Of a DNA stretch of 64,000 nucleotides, positions 13,137 through 43,277 are shown one piece after another; the first letter of the stretch is position 1; every line of letters begins with the position of its first letter. The notes under the pieces are model-generated. The model was not told the origin of the DNA. It did no database searches and was given only the letters and a program-made list of their open reading frames with translations. This DNA comes from Candidatus Micrarchaeota archaeon (lineage in GTDB: Archaea; Micrarchaeota; Micrarchaeia; Norongarragalinales; Norongarragalinaceae). A program made the position numbers and the translations under genes. The stretch is from the NCBI GenBank assembly GCA_016207165.1, contig JACQQD010000005.1, positions 98,736 to 162,735 on the forward strand, written 5' to 3'.

Positions 13137-14135
13137 ATGAGCATCGCCCCGTTTGAACACCGTCGATTTCGCATCAACGGAATCAACGAAGAACGCTATC
13201 CCACGATCAAACGTGATTTAAACGGCATCATTTCCACGCCGGGCCGCGTCCGCACCGAGTTGGAAGAAAAGCTCACCAGCGAATACGTTTATCCCGCCAT
13301 TTTCAAGCCCATCCCTCACCCTCCAGACCTGGTAGGTTACCCGCGTCACGGCACAGACCGGCCCTTCCGAGCCATGCATTTTGCGGCGCTGGCCGATTTC
13401 ATGCGAGCGCTTCAACGAGAGCCTCCCACCGGAAAACTTGAAAAACCCGGGTCCTGGCTTTCCGGATTCCGCCAACAAGTCCTCGCCATGGTCGAGGAAT
13501 TGGCGGCGCTTTCCATGGATTTCCGCATCCGCCGGACGCCTCATGCCACCCTGGGCGCGTCGCTTGTTCAATCCCGCAACCTGGCCGAGACCGCCCACCA
13601 CAACCACGTGGCCCACGCCAACGTATGGGGCCGGTTGTGCCAAGGCATCACCCGTGTGACGCTTCGAGATGGGGAAGCCCAGCGCGAATCCATCGGCATC
13701 CACGCCTCGCAGATCGGATTGGTTCCCCTTACCGTGAGTCAAATCGCCCAGCACTACCTTGGCTTTGCCCTTCCCAAGACTCGTCTTTCCCGCGGTAACC
13801 GCGACGCGCGTTTCATTCCCGACGCGACTTCCTTTTCGTTCGGCAGGCAAGACGTCGCCCACTGGACGGGTTCTCACTTGTCTGCCGTGGAACTGGGGCA
13901 AAACAAGGAGAAGTTCGAGAAACTGGATGCCGACTTGAACGCCCACGTGGCGGCGCTGAAAGCTGCCGCTTCATTTGACTTGGGTGACCGCGTCCACCTC
14001 CATTACGGCTTGTACCTGGCCCAACAACTCACCGATGAAAAAAAGCGTGCGGAGTGTCTCCAAAGGCAAGTCCGTCGCGTACTTACCGTACTTTCCGAAA
14101 AATTGCCGGAGTCATATCGCAATCCCCGAAAGTAA
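13137..14135 (+). CDS. hypothetical protein (332 aa, no recognisable domain) inserted between rpl14e and cbf5
   Basis: long ORF with period-3 GC3 bias; no motif I can assign; an antisense ORF 13218..13946 also exists. Confidence 0.55.
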   Translation: MSIAPFEHRRFRINGINEERYPTIKRDLNGIISTPGRVRTELEEKLTSEYVYPAIFKPIPHPPDLVGYPRHGTDRPFRAMHFAALADFMRALQREPPTGKLEKPGSWLSGFRQQVLAMVEELAALSMDFRIRRTPHATLGASLVQSRNLAETAHHNHVAHANVWGRLCQGITRVTLRDGEAQRESIGIHASQIGLVPLTVSQIAQHYLGFALPKTRLSRGNRDARFIPDATSFSFGRQDVAHWTGSHLSAVELGQNKEKFEKLDADLNAHVAALKAAASFDLGDRVHLHYGLYLAQQLTDEKKRAECLQRQVRRVLTVLSEKLPESYRNPRK

Positions 14136-14185: not shown

Positions 14186-15214
14186 TTGGTTAAGCGTGAT
14201 GTCCGCCATTTTTTCCACGACTCGATTCTTCTTGGCCTTCATTTAAATCCTCGGAAGAAAATAATTCAACTCCGCGATGATTATATGATTACCCTTCACT
14301 CGGAAGAATCCACCTGGGGAAAGACCATGGATGAGAAGACCGTCGACGAAATCCTCCCCTATTCTTTGGTGGTCATCGACAAGCCCTGCGGCCCCTCCTC
14401 GCATGAAGTCTCCGCCTACGTGAAAAAGATTTTGGGCGTGACCAAGACCGGCCACTCCGGAACGCTTGATCCGGAAGTCTCCGGCGTCCTGCCGGTTTTG
14501 TTGGGCGAGGCGACGAAAGCCGCCGGTTTTTTGCTTCGCGAACGCAAGACGTACGTGGCCGTCATGAAACTCCGAGACCCGCAAACCGACGAACAGCTCG
14601 AAGACGCGTTCCAACGCTTCCGCGGCAAAATCTACCAGAAGCCCCCGAAAAAGTCGGCGGTCAAGCGGGAACTGCGCATCCGCGAGGTTTACTCGCTGAA
14701 ACTGCTTCAAAACGCCGGCCAATTCGTTGTTTTTGAATCCGAAGTCCAGGCTGGCACCTACATCCGAAAACTCTGCTACGATTTAGGCGAATACCTTGGG
14801 TGCGGAGGGTTGATGGCCGAACTCCGCCGCATCAATGCCGCCGGCTTTCCTGAAAACCAAGCCCACCCCCTCCAGCACTTGTCCGACGCCGTGTGGCTGT
14901 GGAAGGAGAAAGGCGACGACTCCGAAATCAAGAAAATCCTGGTGCCCATCGAAAACGCCATCCAACTCAAAAAAGTCGTGGTCTCCGATGGAGCCATCAA
15001 ACCCATTACTACCGGCGCCAACTTGGCCATTCCCGGCATTTTGTCTTTGGACGAAGGTATCCGGAAAGACGAACCCGTCCAAATTTTGTCCGGCAAAGGC
15101 GAACTGCTTTGCTTTGCCAAAGCCCTCAAGGACTCGGAAGAAATCCAATCCAAAAAGAAGGGCATCGCCTTTGACATCGAACGCGTGATTCGAGCGCACA
15201 ACGCGTACGGTTGA
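14186..15214 (+). CDS. cbf5: tRNA/rRNA pseudouridine synthase Cbf5 (TruB catalytic domain + PUA)
   Basis: ...LVVIDKPCGPSSHEVSAYVKKILGVTKTGHSGTLDPEVSGVLPVLL... (catalytic Asp motif GTLDP); N-terminus MVKRDVRH resembles Pyrococcus Cbf5 MARDEVRR; alternative starts 14285 and 14327. Confidence 0.88.
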   Translation: MVKRDVRHFFHDSILLGLHLNPRKKIIQLRDDYMITLHSEESTWGKTMDEKTVDEILPYSLVVIDKPCGPSSHEVSAYVKKILGVTKTGHSGTLDPEVSGVLPVLLGEATKAAGFLLRERKTYVAVMKLRDPQTDEQLEDAFQRFRGKIYQKPPKKSAVKRELRIREVYSLKLLQNAGQFVVFESEVQAGTYIRKLCYDLGEYLGCGGLMAELRRINAAGFPENQAHPLQHLSDAVWLWKEKGDDSEIKKILVPIENAIQLKKVVVSDGAIKPITTGANLAIPGILSLDEGIRKDEPVQILSGKGELLCFAKALKDSEEIQSKKKGIAFDIERVIRAHNAYG

Positions 15215-15273
15215 TTTTGAATCAACCGCGCGTTTTAATACCTCGGGCTCGACAACTGGTTTGAGGGTATGAA

Positions 15274-15492
15274 ATGGCTGAAATTACGCTCAACGACATG
15301 TACGCGGAACTAAAATGCCTGCACCAGGATGTGGAATACCTCAAGCGCCGCATGGACGAAAAAGAAGGAAAACCCGCCGACGATGAACCTCTTTCCGATT
15401 CGGAAGTCAAGCGCATGGAGGAGTTGATTGAGAAATCCATTAAGACCGGGCGCATCGTTTCCGAAGAAGAACTCTTTTCCTCCTTGAAGTGA
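15274..15492 (+). CDS. putative antitoxin (small acidic coiled-coil protein) of a type II TA pair
   Basis: 72 aa, 7-nt gap to downstream RelE/ParE-like ORF; possible RHH-like N-terminus MAEITLNDMYAELK. Confidence 0.5.
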   Translation: MAEITLNDMYAELKCLHQDVEYLKRRMDEKEGKPADDEPLSDSEVKRMEELIEKSIKTGRIVSEEELFSSLK

Positions 15493-15498
15493 ACTCCC

Positions 15499-15861
15499 GT
15501 GGAGTATTCGCTTTTCTCCACGGCCTTCTTCAAAACCCAGTTTGACTCTTTGCCCATCGACGAACGCCGGAAAATCCGCGACCGGCTTTTGCTGGCTAAA
15601 GCCAACCCGTTCCGCAACAAGGCCATCCACTCCAACCGCTTCAAGCGCTTGTTCCGAATCCGCTTGGACGTCCAAGGCGTTTCCATACGCTTGGTTTACG
15701 CGGTACTGGGCTCGAAAATCGTTGTGGCCGGCTTCATCCCCCGGGACAACGATTACCGGGATTTGGACTCGCTTCTCTCCAAAATGCAGCGGGAACTTGA
15801 AACCCAGACTGAGGCTGGCTTTTCTTTGGAGCCACCCGATTCAAAGCACGAAAAGGCCTAG
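15499..15861 (+). CDS. RelE/ParE-superfamily toxin (mRNA interferase-like)
   Basis: 120 aa; FFKTQFDSLPIDERRKIRDRLLLAKANPF...RFKRLFRIRLDVQGVSIRLVYAVLGSKIVVAGFIPRDNDY matches the RelE/ParE pattern (L..NP...k.l.g.l.g.yRiRvgdyRiiY). Confidence 0.7.
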   Translation: MEYSLFSTAFFKTQFDSLPIDERRKIRDRLLLAKANPFRNKAIHSNRFKRLFRIRLDVQGVSIRLVYAVLGSKIVVAGFIPRDNDYRDLDSLLSKMQRELETQTEAGFSLEPPDSKHEKA

Positions 15862-15912: not shown

Positions 15913-18900
15913 ATGCGTGCCGTCTTTTCCCTTTCCATACTCGTCCTGCTTGTTTCGGCTTTCTCTATTTCCGCGGCAGGCAACTTGCTTGTCTTAAACA
16001 AGCAAGCCATTGCTTTTCAGCCTCCCTCGGATTGCTCGGGCAACCTGGCGTTGGAAGCCAGCATGGCCTGCGCCGCCAAAAACTCGGTTTTGGCGTCAGA
16101 CGGCCTGCGCTTGGATGTCCACGTGGGCTCCGATTTCGTCCAAAAATTGTCGGGCGCCAACACGCGTCTGACGTGGTTCACCGGCGAGGGCCCGGTAATC
16201 TCGGATGCCCTCTCGTTTCCTTTGACCGGCGAAGGCTTCAGCGTCATTCATTTCGACGGCCGCCAGCTTCACGTCTACGCGAGTACCTCGGACACGGAAG
16301 CCGCTGCGGCGCTCGGCCAATATCTTTTTGATGAACGGAAGAATTTGGCGTTCAACAAGGATTGCCGCCTCTCCGTTTCCAGTAACGGCGACGCCATTGC
16401 CTTCAAGAAGTGCGTGCCGACCAACCTGCCTACCAAATCCTCTTTTCAAACTCAGTCATTGGGCTCCCAAGCGTACGATGACTTTTTCGTCTACGATGCC
16501 GCGCAAGGCGGCGTTTCAGCGGGAGCTTTGCCGGAGTTGGGTGACTGTAGCAAGGTTGCGTTCTCCAAATGGCCCACGCCTTCCAAGGAAGTCATCGACA
16601 AGTTCAACGTGGCCGGACTTGGAGGTTACGATTCCGGTCATCGCACGCACAAGGGCATCGACATTTCCATTGCGGAGAACGACCCCGTCTACTCCGTTCT
16701 GCCCGGAAAAATCCTCGACATTTACTCGGCGTGTCCGGCTTACTCAACCCCCGCCGACTACGGTTGCGGCGGCGGCTTCGGAAACTTGGTGAAAGTCGTC
16801 CACGGAACGTGTACCTACGACGGACAGAAAAGCTACTTCATGACGCAATACAACCATTTGGCCAAGGCGGCCGACGGCCTCAAGATTGGAGACGGCGTTG
16901 CCGCTGGCCAGAAAATCGCGTTGGGCGGCAGCTCGGGAAGGTCCACAGGCCCCCACTTGCATTTCGGGGCCGCGTTAATCGACTCGCTGAAAACCGGTCA
17001 ATCCACGGATTCGGACTCCAACGTCGTGTTGAACCCATCGCCGGCCTTAACCGTGGCCTCGTTGCCTGCAGGCTCCGTTCCCGGCCCCGTTCAAGCGCGC
17101 CCGCAATCCATTTTGGATTTTGCGGAAGAAGGTAAAATCAAGACTTCAGTCAAAAACGGCGAAACCGGGATCCTAGCCATCACGCCTTCCGTCAACGGCC
17201 AATGCAGTCAACCGCCCCAAACACCCTATCTACTTGGGCAAGCCCAGGAACTTTCGTCCCCCATTTGCGTCTATTACCAGCTTAGCGCGGAGCACGCGGC
17301 GGCCGTGCAAGACATCGCCTTTGCCGGTTATAGCGAACGTTCCGGCAGTTACTTTACCGTCCGATCCGCCATTCCAAAGGACTCCTCCATCCAGTACCCG
17401 GAAGACTATGAATCGCAAGTCAACATCGGGAAACCACTTTCCGCTTCGGGCCAGCCATCCGCCGGTGTCGCCGTCGCCGCACTGCCTGTGCTTAAACCCG
17501 GTGACTCGTATCCGGGAGGCCTGCACTTGAACATGTATTTGCGCACGGAATTAATTTCTCCTTCAACGGAAGTCAGTGCGAATGCCAAGGCCCCGGGAAT
17601 TTCCCGCGTGAAAGTCGGTGAAATCAACGTCGGCCTCCTGAAAAGCAATTACATCAAGAACGTTCCAGGCTCGCTTCAAGGCAAGACCTTCGTCATCGAT
17701 CCCGGCCATGGCGGGCCGGACGGGTTGGGTTCCTACGTGGGCGCCGACGAGAAAACCACGCCCCGCCACGAACGCACCATCACGCTGGCTGTTTCCAAAG
17801 AACTCCGAGAGCTTCTCTCTGGCGCCGGCGCCAAGGTGGTCATGACGCGCGAAACCGACGTGGACGTCGATTTGTCAGACCGGGCGGACCTGGCGGACAG
17901 CCAGAACGCGGATGCGTTCGTCAGCGTCCACGTCAACTGCGACCGGGAAAAAGCGATTCGAGAAACGCAGGGAATCACCCAGTTTGCCGGCATCAAGAAA
18001 ACCGATCCTGAACTTTGCTCTGCGGGCGTGATCTATCCCAAAGTGGGAGGCGCGCAAGAGAAAAACAGCATTGGGTTGGCGCAAGCCATTGCCAAGTCCA
18101 TGTCCCTGGATTCCCTTCCGTCGTTTGGCGTGTACTTTGACGGCCCCGGTTCGACGTTCGTGGGCACGTATTACGCCGGAAAAATCTACAAGCCCACGCC
18201 GTTAGGCGTCCTTCGCGGCACTACCAAGACGGCGGTGCTGGTGGAAATGGGGCCCATCGACGACGATCGGCTGGATGACTCCAATTACCAGCAGCAATTG
18301 GCGCAACAGATTTACGGTGGGATTCTTCAGAAGTTTGGTACAAGTTCCACGCCGACTTCGGGTGCTTTCAATGTCCAATTGCATGCATGCACACAGGGGC
18401 AGGTCAACAACGGGGATTATTCGCTGACTTTTGAAGAACTTGACCCACTGATTACCGAAGCCTCCCAAAAGTATGGCGTTGAAAAGGCGCTCATCAAGGC
18501 CATCATTTCCCAGGAAAGCGGCCGCCGCCCCTGTGTCATTTCCTTTTACAAGGACTGCTGTTTTGGCTTGATGCAATTGAATCGGCTCAACGGCGATGAA
18601 ACCGGCTATAGTTTGGCGACCAGCACCGCCGGCGTCTTGCAACAGCAAACCGGGTTTGCTTGTTTTGATAAGCCCCTGGATCCCCGCAACAACATCATGT
18701 GTGGCGCCAAGCACTTGGCGGATTTGGTGCGTTTTTATGGCAACAAGTATCCTGGTCAGGACTCCATTAAAATCGTGGCCGCGGCCTACAACGCCGGCGG
18801 CGGAAACGTGGAAAAGTACGGCGGCGTGCCCCCGTTTGGCGAAACGCAAAACTACGTCGTTGAAGTCCGCAAGTTTTACGACCAGTACCGCACGGCGTAA
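15913..18900 (+). CDS. secreted multidomain peptidoglycan hydrolase: signal peptide + M23/LytM endopeptidase + Amidase_3 (MurNAc-L-Ala amidase) + C-terminal SLT lytic transglycosylase
   Basis: signal MRAVFSLSILVLLVSAFS; M23 motifs HKGIDIS...D...YNHL...GSSGRSTGPHLHFG; Amidase_3 KTFVIDPGHGGPDG...ADAFVSVHVNC; SLT ...LIKAIISQESGRRP...FGLMQLN...AAAYNAGGGNV; track ORF starts at TTG 15907, ATG 15913 preferred. Confidence 0.8.
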   Translation: MRAVFSLSILVLLVSAFSISAAGNLLVLNKQAIAFQPPSDCSGNLALEASMACAAKNSVLASDGLRLDVHVGSDFVQKLSGANTRLTWFTGEGPVISDALSFPLTGEGFSVIHFDGRQLHVYASTSDTEAAAALGQYLFDERKNLAFNKDCRLSVSSNGDAIAFKKCVPTNLPTKSSFQTQSLGSQAYDDFFVYDAAQGGVSAGALPELGDCSKVAFSKWPTPSKEVIDKFNVAGLGGYDSGHRTHKGIDISIAENDPVYSVLPGKILDIYSACPAYSTPADYGCGGGFGNLVKVVHGTCTYDGQKSYFMTQYNHLAKAADGLKIGDGVAAGQKIALGGSSGRSTGPHLHFGAALIDSLKTGQSTDSDSNVVLNPSPALTVASLPAGSVPGPVQARPQSILDFAEEGKIKTSVKNGETGILAITPSVNGQCSQPPQTPYLLGQAQELSSPICVYYQLSAEHAAAVQDIAFAGYSERSGSYFTVRSAIPKDSSIQYPEDYESQVNIGKPLSASGQPSAGVAVAALPVLKPGDSYPGGLHLNMYLRTELISPSTEVSANAKAPGISRVKVGEINVGLLKSNYIKNVPGSLQGKTFVIDPGHGGPDGLGSYVGADEKTTPRHERTITLAVSKELRELLSGAGAKVVMTRETDVDVDLSDRADLADSQNADAFVSVHVNCDREKAIRETQGITQFAGIKKTDPELCSAGVIYPKVGGAQEKNSIGLAQAIAKSMSLDSLPSFGVYFDGPGSTFVGTYYAGKIYKPTPLGVLRGTTKTAVLVEMGPIDDDRLDDSNYQQQLAQQIYGGILQKFGTSSTPTSGAFNVQLHACTQGQVNNGDYSLTFEELDPLITEASQKYGVEKALIKAIISQESGRRPCVISFYKDCCFGLMQLNRLNGDETGYSLATSTAGVLQQQTGFACFDKPLDPRNNIMCGAKHLADLVRFYGNKYPGQDSIKIVAAAYNAGGGNVEKYGGVPPFGETQNYVVEVRKFYDQYRTA

Positions 18901-23805: not shown

Positions 23806-25290
23806 TCACTGGGGCGCGTTGGGCTTCATTTTCTTGAAGTACCACAGTGTCCCGCCCAACGCGAGAATCAGCACGAGCACGCCGCCGATGATGACGAAGT
23901 CCACGTCGTTTCCTTTCGGTGGAAGCGTTCCCGCCCGGTTGGCCAGTTGCGAGGCTTGCGTTTGAACGGCTTCAAATCCGGCTTGTCCAGCGGCGGCGCC
24001 CGACGTGCCCAAAACGGATATGGACGACGTGAGGTTGGCGTTGAGTCCATCCAGTTCTTTCTTCATTTCCTGGACGCGGGCATCGGATTCCCCGTATTTG
24101 CGCTGGGCTTCCGTGACGTTGGCGTCTGCGGCGGCGATGGCCGATACGGCGAGCCGAAATTGCGTGGAAGCGGACTCGAAAGCCAAAACCAATGCGTCCA
24201 GTTCCGCGTACTTGGCGTCAAAGCTTTCCGTCGCGCCGCTTTGCTGGACGGTTTGCAGTTCCTGTTTCAAGGCGTCTTTCTTGGCGGTGATTGCCGTGAG
24301 GTTCACGCTGCCGCCAGCGCTGTACTCGGCGGTGAGGTTGGCGATGCGGGCCTCGATTTTCGTGGTTTTTTCCGCGCGAAGGGCTCCAGCCGCTCCTTTT
24401 TGCGCGCCTTCCAGGCGGGCGACCGTCTCCGTGAAGACGACGTCGACGAGTTGGTCTGCGGAGCGCAACGCCTTGTTGGAGAACGTGTTTTGGATTACGG
24501 AAAGCGCGGTGCTGGCGTTCGCGACAAAATCGCACGTGTGCGGCGTTCCGGACTTGTAGAACGTGGCTTTCAGGATGAACGAGAAATCGCCGCTGGCGTT
24601 CAACGTGGCGTACGCTGAAGACACCGTCGTGTACTCGCGGCTAAGCGTGGCCGCGCTGTCGCGCAGCACGCCGACGGATGCCAGGATGGCGTCGCGGTTG
24701 CCTTGCGCCACGGTTTCGTTGAACGTGCCGGCTTTCTCCGCGAATTGGTCGTAAGCCGCCGCGTAAGCGGGAAACGAGTTGTTGATTTGCTGGATGGCTT
24801 GGTATTCGGATTTGTACGTGTCGCTTTTGCCTTCCTCTCCATTGGATCGCTCAATCAGGTAGTACAAGCCGATGTTGGCTTTCCCGATGCGGATCGTGCG
24901 GCGGGTAATGCTTTCCACAAACGTGTCGGCTCCAATGCGGCAGTCGCCGAGGACTTCGCGGATGATGGCTTCATTGGTGGACGCGGTGGCCGCGTGCTGG
25001 GCGAAGTCTTGGTCGTCAAAGAGCTTTTGCGCGTACGCGTCCAGGATGGGCTTCAATTGCGTTTTTTCTTTGACTGGCTCGAATGTGCCGTCGGCGGGTT
25101 TCAGTACCACGGACGGCGTGCCGTCGATTTTAAGCACGCTGTACGTCGTGCCCCCAACGCCGATTTCGTCAATGACCTTGCTTTCGCCGGTCTTGACGTA
25201 GTGCTCGGAAACTTGCACGGCGGTTAAGCCGAACGCGGTGGCGGATGCGAAAACCAATATTAAAAGTGCTGAATTGAGTCGGATGTCCAT
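23806..25290 (-). CDS. secreted surface protein: signal peptide, Ala/Thr/Gln-rich coiled-coil region with multiple N-x-S/T sequons, C-terminal TM anchor + KKMK
   Basis: MDIRLNSALLILVFASATAFG signal; ...DFVIIGGVLVLILALGGTLWYFKKMK C-terminal anchor; track ORF extends to TTG 25347 abutting tRNA-Tyr. Confidence 0.6.
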   Translation of the reverse strand: MDIRLNSALLILVFASATAFGLTAVQVSEHYVKTGESKVIDEIGVGGTTYSVLKIDGTPSVVLKPADGTFEPVKEKTQLKPILDAYAQKLFDDQDFAQHAATASTNEAIIREVLGDCRIGADTFVESITRRTIRIGKANIGLYYLIERSNGEEGKSDTYKSEYQAIQQINNSFPAYAAAYDQFAEKAGTFNETVAQGNRDAILASVGVLRDSAATLSREYTTVSSAYATLNASGDFSFILKATFYKSGTPHTCDFVANASTALSVIQNTFSNKALRSADQLVDVVFTETVARLEGAQKGAAGALRAEKTTKIEARIANLTAEYSAGGSVNLTAITAKKDALKQELQTVQQSGATESFDAKYAELDALVLAFESASTQFRLAVSAIAAADANVTEAQRKYGESDARVQEMKKELDGLNANLTSSISVLGTSGAAAGQAGFEAVQTQASQLANRAGTLPPKGNDVDFVIIGGVLVLILALGGTLWYFKKMKPNAPQ

Positions 25291-25348
25291 AAGGCTTAAT
25301 AAAACGGGGAATCCCTTATAATGCTTGCGCAAATTGCGGTTGCGCAAT

Positions 25349-41810: not shown

Positions 41811-43277
41811 ATGGTGTACCTCGAACTCACGGAAAGCTACCTGCGCCAGAAAAGCCTGGTCCAGCAGAACTTGGACTCCTACAACCGCTTTCTTGAAGAA
41901 AAAATGCAGGAAATCGTGGAAGCCCAAGGGCAAATCGAGCCCCAAGTGGAAGGCTACCTCATCAAACTCGGCAAGATTCGCGCCGAAAAACCCATGGTCA
42001 CCGAAGCCGACGGTTCCCGTCGCCCCCTGCTTCCCATGGAGGCCCGCATGCGCGACTTGTCCTACACGGCGCCCTTGTTTTTGGAAATGACGCAGGTCGT
42101 CAACGGCGTTGAAAAGCGTCCGGAAGACGTGTTCATCGGCGAATTGCCCGTCATGCTGAAAAGCAAGTTGTGCTACCTGCACGGCAAAAACCACTCGGAA
42201 TTGGAGTTGGCCGGCGAGGACGCCAAGGACTCGGGCGGGTACTTCATCATCAACGGCACCGAAAAAAGTTTGATGACGCTGGAAGACTTGGCGCCCAACC
42301 GCATCATGGTCTCCCGCGAAAAAGACAAGGAAGTCGTGCAAGGCAAGATTTTTTCCACCCGCACGGGTTTCCGCGGACGCTGTACCGTGGACCGCTCCCG
42401 CGAAGGCAAGCTCACCGTGACGTTGCCTTCCTACAACAAGTCCCTGGAACTCATCTTGGTGTTGTACGCCTTGGGCTTGGACTCCGAGGAGAAAGTCGTC
42501 TCCGCTTTCGGAAAAGAAAAGGAAGTCCACAACGATTTGCTTTTGAATTTCGAACTCAACCCCGTCAAAAACAAGAAAGACGCCCTGGAGACCATCGGCA
42601 AACGCGCGGCGCCCGGCCAACCCGTCGACTACCAGCTCAAACGCGCCGAATTGTTGTTGGACCGCTACTTGTTGCCGCACATCGGCGTGACGCAAAAAGA
42701 CCGCCTCAGCAAGGCGTACTTCTTGTCCCGCATGTCGGAACGCGTGATTTTGGTTGCGCACAAGAAACGCGCGGTGGAAGACAAGGACCACTACGCCAAC
42801 AAACGCCTCAAGATCGCCGGCAAACTCATGGAGGAACTCTTCCGCTACGCCTTCGGATTTCTCGTCAAGGACGTCGCCTACCAAATCGAGCGCGCCAACG
42901 TCCGAGGACGTCGGATGAGCATGTTCGCCTTGGTCCGTCCCGACGCGTTAACCGACCGCATCAAGTACGCCATGGCCACCGGCAACTGGGTGGGAGGCCA
43001 CACCGGCGTGTCCCAACCCATGGACCGCTACAACTTCATTTCCGCCGCTTCATTCTTAAAGCGCGTCACGTCGCCTTTGGCCAAAAAACACCCGCACTAC
43101 AAGGCCCGCGACCTGAACGGCACGCACTGGGGGCGCCTGGATCCCAACGAGACGCCGGAAGGCCCCAACTGCGGCCTGGTCAAAAACCTCGCGCTGTACT
43201 GCGAAGTCACCACCGGAATTAAAGAACAAGCCGTTGAAGCCACGCTGAAGAAAATGGGGTTGACCATGCGCGTATGA
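41811..43277 (+). CDS. rpoB2: DNA-directed RNA polymerase subunit B'' (Rpo2 N-terminal half; split rpoB)
   Basis: 488 aa; ends 43277 with ATGA overlap into B'. Confidence 0.93.
   Translation: MVYLELTESYLRQKSLVQQNLDSYNRFLEEKMQEIVEAQGQIEPQVEGYLIKLGKIRAEKPMVTEADGSRRPLLPMEARMRDLSYTAPLFLEMTQVVNGVEKRPEDVFIGELPVMLKSKLCYLHGKNHSELELAGEDAKDSGGYFIINGTEKSLMTLEDLAPNRIMVSREKDKEVVQGKIFSTRTGFRGRCTVDRSREGKLTVTLPSYNKSLELILVLYALGLDSEEKVVSAFGKEKEVHNDLLLNFELNPVKNKKDALETIGKRAAPGQPVDYQLKRAELLLDRYLLPHIGVTQKDRLSKAYFLSRMSERVILVAHKKRAVEDKDHYANKRLKIAGKLMEELFRYAFGFLVKDVAYQIERANVRGRRMSMFALVRPDALTDRIKYAMATGNWVGGHTGVSQPMDRYNFISAASFLKRVTSPLAKKHPHYKARDLNGTHWGRLDPNETPEGPNCGLVKNLALYCEVTTGIKEQAVEATLKKMGLTMRV

Follow-up and report, generated by a model that had tools for sequence, protein, structure and literature searches.

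A 64,000-nucleotide (nt) stretch of a Candidatus Micrarchaeota archaeon genome (contig JACQQD010000005.1, positions 98,736 to 162,735; hereafter the window) carries, directly after cbf5, two small adjacent genes that are likely to constitute a type II toxin–antitoxin operon of the RelBE kind, inserted in this Micrarchaeota chromosome and composed of a RelE-type toxin and an acidic antitoxin. The antitoxin gene (positions 15274–15492 of the window, ATG start, 72 amino acids (aa)) and the toxin gene (15499–15861, GTG start, 120 aa) are both located on the plus strand and are separated by 6 nt (ACTCCC, 15493–15498), one fewer than stated in a first-pass annotation of this DNA, which had already proposed a toxin–antitoxin pair at this position and had placed both open reading frames (ORFs) correctly. 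The 72-aa protein is indeed acidic, as had been remarked there, with an isoelectric point (pI) of 4.68; the pI of the 120-aa protein is 9.84, or 10.7 when its C-terminal tail is left out. Exact copies of the two proteins are present at NCBI as hypothetical proteins HY572_02715 and HY572_02720, encoded on a 204-kb contig of Candidatus Micrarchaeota archaeon, so that the present assignment would provide two 'hypothetical proteins' with a function. The literature held nothing specific on the toxin family or on toxin–antitoxin modules of Micrarchaeota.

Fold and active site of the toxin

Taken as a single sequence, the toxin matched only one Pfam model, Gp49 (PF05973), with an E-value of 0.002 and a score of 18.4 bits against a cut-off of 23.9; the Pfam models that the first-pass annotation had suggested as a check on this protein stayed below threshold. 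NCBIfam and PADLOC returned nothing significant for either protein of the window, and PHROG 1213, described as a 'RelE-like toxin', matched the toxin over its full length with E=0.009. A search of the PDB with the single sequence gave matches to acetate kinase only, which were judged to be due to chance. Since a word-indexed search of 5.8 billion sequences yielded just three homologues of the toxin, an exhaustive profile search was needed to find its family. The resulting four-sequence profile, compared with 1.84 billion cluster representatives, retrieved 146 clusters at E≤1e-3, 76 of them at E≤1e-10, with proteins that are nearly all 90–105 aa long. In a collection of species-representative genomes, the family was found at 11 loci, all in archaeal metagenome-assembled genomes (MAGs), mostly of DPANN archaea, which are labelled Woesearchaeota, Nanoarchaeota/Nanoarchaeia, 'Methanosarcinales' or simply archaeon. 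A scan of viral contigs revealed no relative of the family. The toxin would thus belong to a RelE subfamily that is small, divergent and, as far as the present searches show, confined to archaea, and that the current models of Pfam, NCBIfam and PADLOC miss.

The relationship to RelE emerges at the level of the family. When the profile of the family alignment (A4, 69 sequences) was compared with solved structures, the best match was Escherichia coli RelE (PDB 4FXE, 4V7J/K), over the full length and with E=3.6e-6, followed by YoeB, the archaeal RelE (aRelE) of Pyrococcus horikoshii, RelE of Mycobacterium tuberculosis and RelE3 of Methanocaldococcus jannaschii, with no ParE at E≤10. Alignment of A4 by hhalign gave E-values of 4.4e-6 for E. 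coli RelE and of 1.7e-5 for P. horikoshii aRelE, the sequence used for the latter being identical to 1wmi_A. Individual members of the family also reach Pfam models, namely PF05016 (16 of 69, best E-value 3.6e-9), ParE-like_toxin (10 of 69) and Gp49 (9 of 69). An AlphaFold2 model of the toxin, computed with A4 as input, had a mean predicted local distance difference test score (pLDDT) of 90 and a predicted template modelling score (pTM) of 0.77. Its topology, b1-a1-a2-b2-b3-b4-b5-a3, is that of the RelE/ParE fold, and the top Foldseek matches were all RelE, HigB2, YoeB, YafQ or ParE proteins, HigB2 ranking first. The template modelling (TM) scores were 0.76–0.79 for RelE of E. coli (0.76) and M. 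tuberculosis, as against 0.52–0.62 for ParE. Model, Foldseek matches and family profile thus bear out the RelE/ParE fold that had been proposed from the sequence of the window alone.

Within the superfamily, the toxin is set apart from its characterised relatives by several features. It is only ~22% identical to aRelE of P. horikoshii OT3, known from the aRelE–aRelB structure (PDB 1WMI), and in its family the catalytic tyrosine is followed by an additional C-terminal helix (residues 89–107). With the bacterial E. coli RelE it shares the arrangement of basic residues, although R53 and R55 of the window toxin stand in place of K52 and K54. HigB/Gp49 (PF05973) and ParE (PF05016) have the same superfamily fold. 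HigBA modules, however, typically begin with the toxin gene, an order opposite to that of the window pair, in which the antitoxin comes first. Also close are the uncharacterised RelE-like/RHH (ribbon-helix-helix) pairs that occur in DPANN-type archaeal MAGs (loci L002–L014) and belong to the toxin's own family; their toxins are 28–40% identical to the window toxin over the full length but, at 95–100 aa, have no tail. Indeed, residues ~99–120 of the toxin (15796–15861) are found only in the window and in the lineage of one relative, L001 (Logan ERR14788029), and are absent from other members of the family. This tail is poorly conserved, with pLDDT values of 61–73 and a ratio of non-synonymous to synonymous substitution rates (dN/dS) of 0.46 against L001. 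It looks like a recent, weakly constrained extension, which may have arisen by read-through into former intergenic DNA.

The toxin motifs quoted in the first-pass annotation (NPF, RFKRLFRIRLDVQGVSIRLVYAV and IVVAGFIPRDNDY) are all present in the 120-aa ORF, as are the residues R53, R55, R64, R82 and Y86. Among the 69 homologues, position 64 is an arginine without exception, position 55 is always arginine or lysine, position 82 is arginine in 66 and position 86 tyrosine or phenylalanine in 66, while arginine or lysine occupies position 53 in 53 of the sequences; P37, R39 and K41 are strongly conserved too. In the hhalign alignments, R53, R55 and R64 fall on K52, K54 and R61 of E. coli RelE, and R53, R55, R64, P81-R82 and Y86 on R58, R60, R65, P84-R85 and Y89 of the archaeal protein. 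Takagi and colleagues are said to have found in 2005 that R85, R58 and R65 are sensitive positions of archaeal RelE. In E. coli RelE, R61, R81 and Y87 are catalytically important and are assisted by K52 and K54, and archaeal RelE likewise depends on conserved basic residues (PMC2807027). The fact that the conserved active-site residues are intact favours an mRNA endonuclease of the RelE type over a gyrase poison of the ParE type, and the toxin is, to judge from its sequence, most likely a ribosome-dependent mRNA endonuclease.

The antitoxin and its constraint

For the 72-aa protein, the search of 5.8 billion sequences turned up a single close homologue, and there was no match in Pfam, NCBIfam, PADLOC, PHROGs or the PDB. 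An AlphaFold2 model based on a two-sequence alignment (pLDDT 82, pTM 0.39) showed no compact fold; it consists of a long helix (residues 6–30), an unstructured and variable linker (31–41) and two further helices (42–58 and 64–69). What links this protein to the toxin is the comparison with the neighbours of the toxin homologues. An ORF of ~80 aa lies directly upstream of the homologue at 12 of 13 loci, and its end ranges from 17 nt inside the toxin gene to 18 nt upstream of the toxin start. The usual antitoxin–toxin arrangement that had been pointed out for the window is therefore a kept feature of the family. Ten of the partners can be grouped into a single family, whose consensus is MNxQINLRLPxxMLxxAxxYAEKHGFxxIQEFIKETLREKLFE..ISKKELxLVKKLIExSEKxxLYGTEEELFxKLKR. 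The N-terminal half of the DPANN partners weakly resembles a ribbon-helix-helix (RHH) domain: the match to CopG_antitoxin is sub-threshold (E=3.6e-5), the NikR RHH domain is found with E~0.06–0.1, and E. coli RelB, an RHH antitoxin whose C-terminal segment wraps around the toxin, as in the partners of most toxins of the window family, with E=0.42.

A hidden Markov model (HMM) built from the ten RHH-type partners matched the C-terminal 34 aa of the window antitoxin (LSDSEVKRMEELIEKSIKTGRIVSEEELFSSLK) with 17.2 bits, as compared with a maximum of 10.3 bits for 2000 shuffled sequences, while the N-terminal 38 aa showed no match to it. The antitoxin shares with the partner family the motif SEEELFxxLK, and its tail corresponds to the C-terminal motif of the L002–L014 partners, ..LVKKLIE.SEK..LYGTEEELF.KLKR; it lacks, however, their N-terminal RHH-like segment, QINLRLP...YAEKHGF..IQEFIKETLREKLF. 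To align the antitoxin with the RHH partners, MAFFT required a 7-residue gap in helix 1. The N-terminal RHH domain is absent from the window protein, in which HMMER found no N-terminal match and no strand was predicted; in this respect it also differs from E. coli RelB. The C-terminal helices may accordingly be regarded as a predicted toxin-binding segment, homologous to that of the family partners. The C-terminal match without an N-terminal one, together with the helical model, suggests that a tail of the partner type was kept and that the RHH DNA-binding head has been replaced by, or has degenerated into, a single helix. Of the earlier proposal that the antitoxin may represent a new partner family, only a part holds: the C-terminal 34 aa are homologous to RHH-type partners, and it is the N-terminal helix that is unusual.

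This helix is not confined to the window and its orthologue. A 65-aa protein encoded at the same post-cbf5 position in another related Micrarchaeota contig (L015/L016) is 43% identical to the window antitoxin, the common N-terminal sequence being ..E(L/I)KCLHxDVEYLKR, and a scan of metagenomes with the N-terminal module returned the L015-type locus again and nothing else. The 88-aa toxin of that pair is also RelE-like (PHROG 1213, E=1.2e-9; PF05016, E=4e-4), but has no BLASTP similarity to the window toxin, and the C-termini of the two antitoxins differ. On these alignments, the N-terminal helix is a conserved module in its own right, and a head shared with the antitoxin of a different toxin reflects the exchange of heads and tails that is typical of type II antitoxins. 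It thus seems that the antitoxin evolved in a modular manner, the toxin-binding tail being kept and the RHH head swapped for one helix that is shared with the antitoxin of another RelE toxin at the same locus. An antitoxin of this kind is not without parallel: the archaeal RelB (aRelB) of P. horikoshii has no known DNA-binding motif, yet was crystallised with its toxin as an (aRelB)2(aRelE)2 complex (PMC4803016), although no sequence similarity between aRelB and the window antitoxin was detected.

That both ORFs are real genes, and not chance ORFs, follows from the comparison with L001, whose contig holds the sole known orthologous pair (83% identity for the antitoxin, 79% for the toxin). Over the whole antitoxin gene, dN/dS is 0.275; the N-terminal helix has a value of 0.20 and the C-terminal part one of 0.15, while the linker reaches 1.15. 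For residues 1–98 of the toxin it is 0.16. The structured parts of both genes thus have values of 0.15–0.2, which argues that the two genes are expressed and constrained. Gene order and 6-nt spacing are kept in L001, and the GTG start of the toxin gene is backed by the N-terminal alignment with homologues (MEYSL...). Minus-strand ORFs of 154 and 121 aa across the pair were regarded as mere shadows of the coding strand and set aside. Antitoxin and toxin happen to share one reading frame, with TGA and two codons between them, and do so in L001 as well, an arrangement expected by chance in ~1 of 3 cases.

Proposed mode of action and rival explanations

By homology with RelE, the free toxin would enter the ribosomal A site and cleave the mRNA codon positioned there, using the conserved R53/R55, R64, R82 and Y86, counterparts of residues that are required in the E. 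coli and P. horikoshii enzymes. The C-terminal helices of the antitoxin (~40–72, motif LSxxE..LIE.S.K....SEEELFxxLK) are predicted, from the homology with the partners, to attach to the toxin and cover its active face. The N-terminal 25-residue helix would stand in for the RHH domain and probably serves in dimerisation. The only candidate operator is the hairpin or palindrome at 15200–15234, next to a TATA-like box (see below).

Several points weigh against the interpretation of the pair as a RelBE-type operon. Neither protein of the window reaches the cut-off of any Pfam, NCBIfam or PADLOC model. The antitoxin is without a DNA-binding domain recognisable by the partner HMM, Pfam, the PDB or AlphaFold2, so that classical autoregulation would be conjectural. 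Finally, the equivalence of R82 and Y86 with R81 and Y87 of the E. coli enzyme rests on the alignment with archaeal RelE and not on a three-dimensional superposition.

The main rival explanation is that the toxin would be a ParE-type poison of DNA gyrase, the module being ParDE-like. PF05016, the model matched by some family members, spans RelE as well as ParE. The gyrase-targeting ParE is without the catalytic set of RelE, whereas the catalytic arginines and the tyrosine are nearly invariant in the present family. The structure profile search, which returned RelE, YoeB and archaeal RelE and no ParE, and the higher TM-scores to RelE than to ParE argue in the same sense, so that an activity against gyrase appears unlikely.

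Alternatively, the pair might be a decaying or domesticated remnant, in which a RelE-fold protein would be non-toxic or would have acquired another ribosome-linked role, next to a small helical protein without regulation. This would be consistent with an antitoxin that has lost the RHH domain of its relatives, with a toxin bearing a poorly conserved 20-aa tail of low pLDDT and a dN/dS of 0.46, and with the existence of a single orthologous pair. Yet every conserved catalytic position is intact in the window toxin, both genes have been under purifying selection since the divergence from the L001 orthologues, and conservation extends to the 6-nt coupling as well as to the promoter region; the P. 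horikoshii aRelB, also without a known DNA-binding motif, nonetheless forms a complex with its toxin (PMC4803016). We thus consider decay or domestication quite improbable. It is also conceivable that the 72-aa ORF is unrelated to the toxin and not its cognate antitoxin at all, the toxin being an orphan or counteracted in some other way, as might be imagined from a 72-aa protein that matches no family library and has a single close homologue. Given the match of its C-terminal 34 aa to the HMM of the upstream partners, well above the best shuffled score, the SEEELFxxLK motif common to these partners, and the order and spacing kept in L001, this explanation is very unlikely. The reading of the pair as a RelBE-type toxin–antitoxin operon is therefore retained in what follows.

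Expression signals and the cbf5–hydrolase junction

The genes flanking the pair were found as previously described. On the upstream side, cbf5 (ORF 14186–15214, plus strand) carries the Pfam domains TruB_N, TruB_C_2, PUA and DKCLD. On the downstream side, a gap of only 51 nt separates the toxin stop from the ATG (15913) of the murein hydrolase gene (15913–18900), which encodes a 997-aa protein with Peptidase_M23, Amidase_3 and SLT domains. An inverted repeat with a 15-bp stem (15200–15234, without strand) spans the cbf5 stop codon (15212–15214) and contains a perfect 9-bp palindromic core, CGGTTGATT-ttg-AATCAACCG. As RNA, it has a folding free energy (dG) of -18 kcal/mol and a z-score of -3.98, and none of 200 shuffled sequences was as good. 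It is unique within the window and abuts a TATA-box-like sequence, TTTTAATA (15233–15240, plus strand), which is located 34 nt upstream of the antitoxin ATG. L001 has an identical 9-bp core, right arm of the repeat and TATA-like box, and its leader is for the most part identical too, whereas divergence is seen in the cbf5-derived sequence on the left. The inverted repeat could be a terminator hairpin of cbf5, an operator, or both, and TTTTAATA is a putative archaeal promoter of the pair; a similar sequence, GCGTTTAAATCC, precedes the hydrolase gene. A Shine–Dalgarno-like GAGGGT (15263–15268, plus strand) 5 nt before the antitoxin ATG may direct translation; it differs by one base from GAGGAT in L001, where the stretch just before it is identical. 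Being 6 nt apart, the two genes are presumably co-transcribed and translationally coupled. A scan for sigma-70 promoters and terminators concerns bacterial signals and was uninformative for an archaeon.

The junction between cbf5 and the hydrolase gene was compared in nine relatives, whose Cbf5 proteins are 72–83% identical. In L017, L018/19, L020/21, L026/27, L028 and L029 it is empty, the hydrolase gene following cbf5 within 23–50 nt; domain matches establish the identity of this gene in L017, L020/21 and L029, whereas in the other three the ORF after cbf5 either runs off the contig or was left unscanned. One RelE-type pair occupies the junction in L015/16, and three pairs are found there in L001, namely a HEPN protein with a nucleotidyltransferase, a MazE-like protein with a DUF4258 protein (minus strand), and the 72/120 pair. 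The empty sites imply that the window pair is a derived insertion between cbf5 and the hydrolase gene. The idea of an insertion hotspot, advanced in the first-pass annotation, is thus well founded, with six relatives empty and two others carrying different or additional toxin–antitoxin pairs at the same site, and the junction has received toxin–antitoxin cassettes repeatedly.

A further peculiarity of the occupied sites of the relatives, where a leftover copy comes after each cassette, is the duplication of the cbf5 3′ end, of which the window holds the last ~26 codons, ...KKKGIAFDIERVIRAHNAYG*, at 15135–15214 (plus strand). In L001 (900–3300), the final ~52 nt of cbf5 occur four times, once as the functional end (at 934) and again at 1690, 2398 and 3155; the copies are spaced by 756, 708 and 757 nt and separate the three pairs. 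In L015 (5981–6700; also in L016, L022 and L023), two copies flank the 65 + 88 aa pair. The downstream one, of ~200 nt, is decayed by a stop codon and a frameshift and is closer to the intact cbf5 end of the empty-site L018 than to the functional end of L015 itself. The window, unlike L015, has a single copy and no remnant downstream of the pair. The cbf5 ends directly before three types of cassette finish in ..YG* (TACGG[T/C]TGA), whereas ends of the ancestral type are longer, for example ..SGLPSAEKPF*.

The simplest reading of these alignments would be a Campbell-type event, in which an incoming cassette carries a cbf5 3′ fragment of its own and recombines, site-specifically or by homology, inside cbf5, thereby restoring the gene and displacing its old end; the window pair probably came together with a replacement cbf5 3′ end. 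The junction is a recurrent landing site in these reduced genomes, at which leftover cbf5 ends record each event. It is tempting to go further and to speculate that two-gene cassettes of ~700–770 bp are mobile units with a specific preference for integrating into the 3′ end of the essential cbf5 gene, each bringing a replacement C-terminus (..YG*) and pushing the old end downstream, so that repeated events lead to tandem arrays split by remnants, the window pair being the oldest cassette, whose remnant has been lost. We hold this to be possible but rather doubtful. Such arrays would resemble integron cassette arrays or repeated integration at tRNA genes, although neither an integrase nor an attC site can be seen here. 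By eye, the palindrome halves GTTGATT/AATCAAC do not fit the integron core sites GTTRRRY / RYYYAAC, and no integrase-like family was recognised among the genes called from ~10 kb upstream to 3.5 kb downstream of the pair, nor among 20 further ORFs of the window. If a dedicated integration mechanism did exist, gene cassettes of DPANN archaea would have a new way of moving. Accordingly, while the pair itself is an ordinary kind of system, the cbf5-linked cassette array of its relatives could be more than ordinary.

The wider surroundings of the pair are conservative. The ~10 kb around it form an archaeal cluster of genes for ribosomal proteins, SecY, cmk, L14e and cbf5, and the remaining ORFs of the window are housekeeping ones, including RNA polymerase, EF-2, EF-1alpha and aconitase. 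The GC content dips only slightly at the pair (0.50–0.53, as compared with 0.55–0.59 in its neighbours), which is too weak to mark foreign DNA.

It is noteworthy that the archaeal cbf5 has as its neighbour a gene for a large, secreted murein hydrolase, the domain composition of which varies among close relatives. The M23, Amidase_3 and SLT domains of the window protein recur in L029; the corresponding sets are YkuD, SLT and M23 in L001, M23, Amidase_2 and SLT in L017, and M23, a GDSL lipase and SLT in L020, and the version of L015 is 1442 aa long. On the other side of cbf5, the interval between the L14e-like gene and cbf5 holds in the window a 332-aa ORF (13137–14135) without a Pfam match. This interval is variable among relatives, with ORFs of 117–295 aa, and in L017 (4218–4884) it contains a PIN and a MazE-like protein, a pair of the VapBC type. 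Such variation points to a second variable spot just upstream of cbf5.

Elsewhere in the window, long minus-strand ORFs (23806–25347 and 43097–45058) gave no matches and may be non-coding shadows of plus-strand genes. A 745-aa ORF (49761–51998) had no Pfam match at E≤1e-5. In archaea, RpoA usually comes in two parts, A′ and A″; the 1154-aa ORF at 45079–48543 carries RNA polymerase Rpb1 domains 1 to 5, apparently in one ORF.

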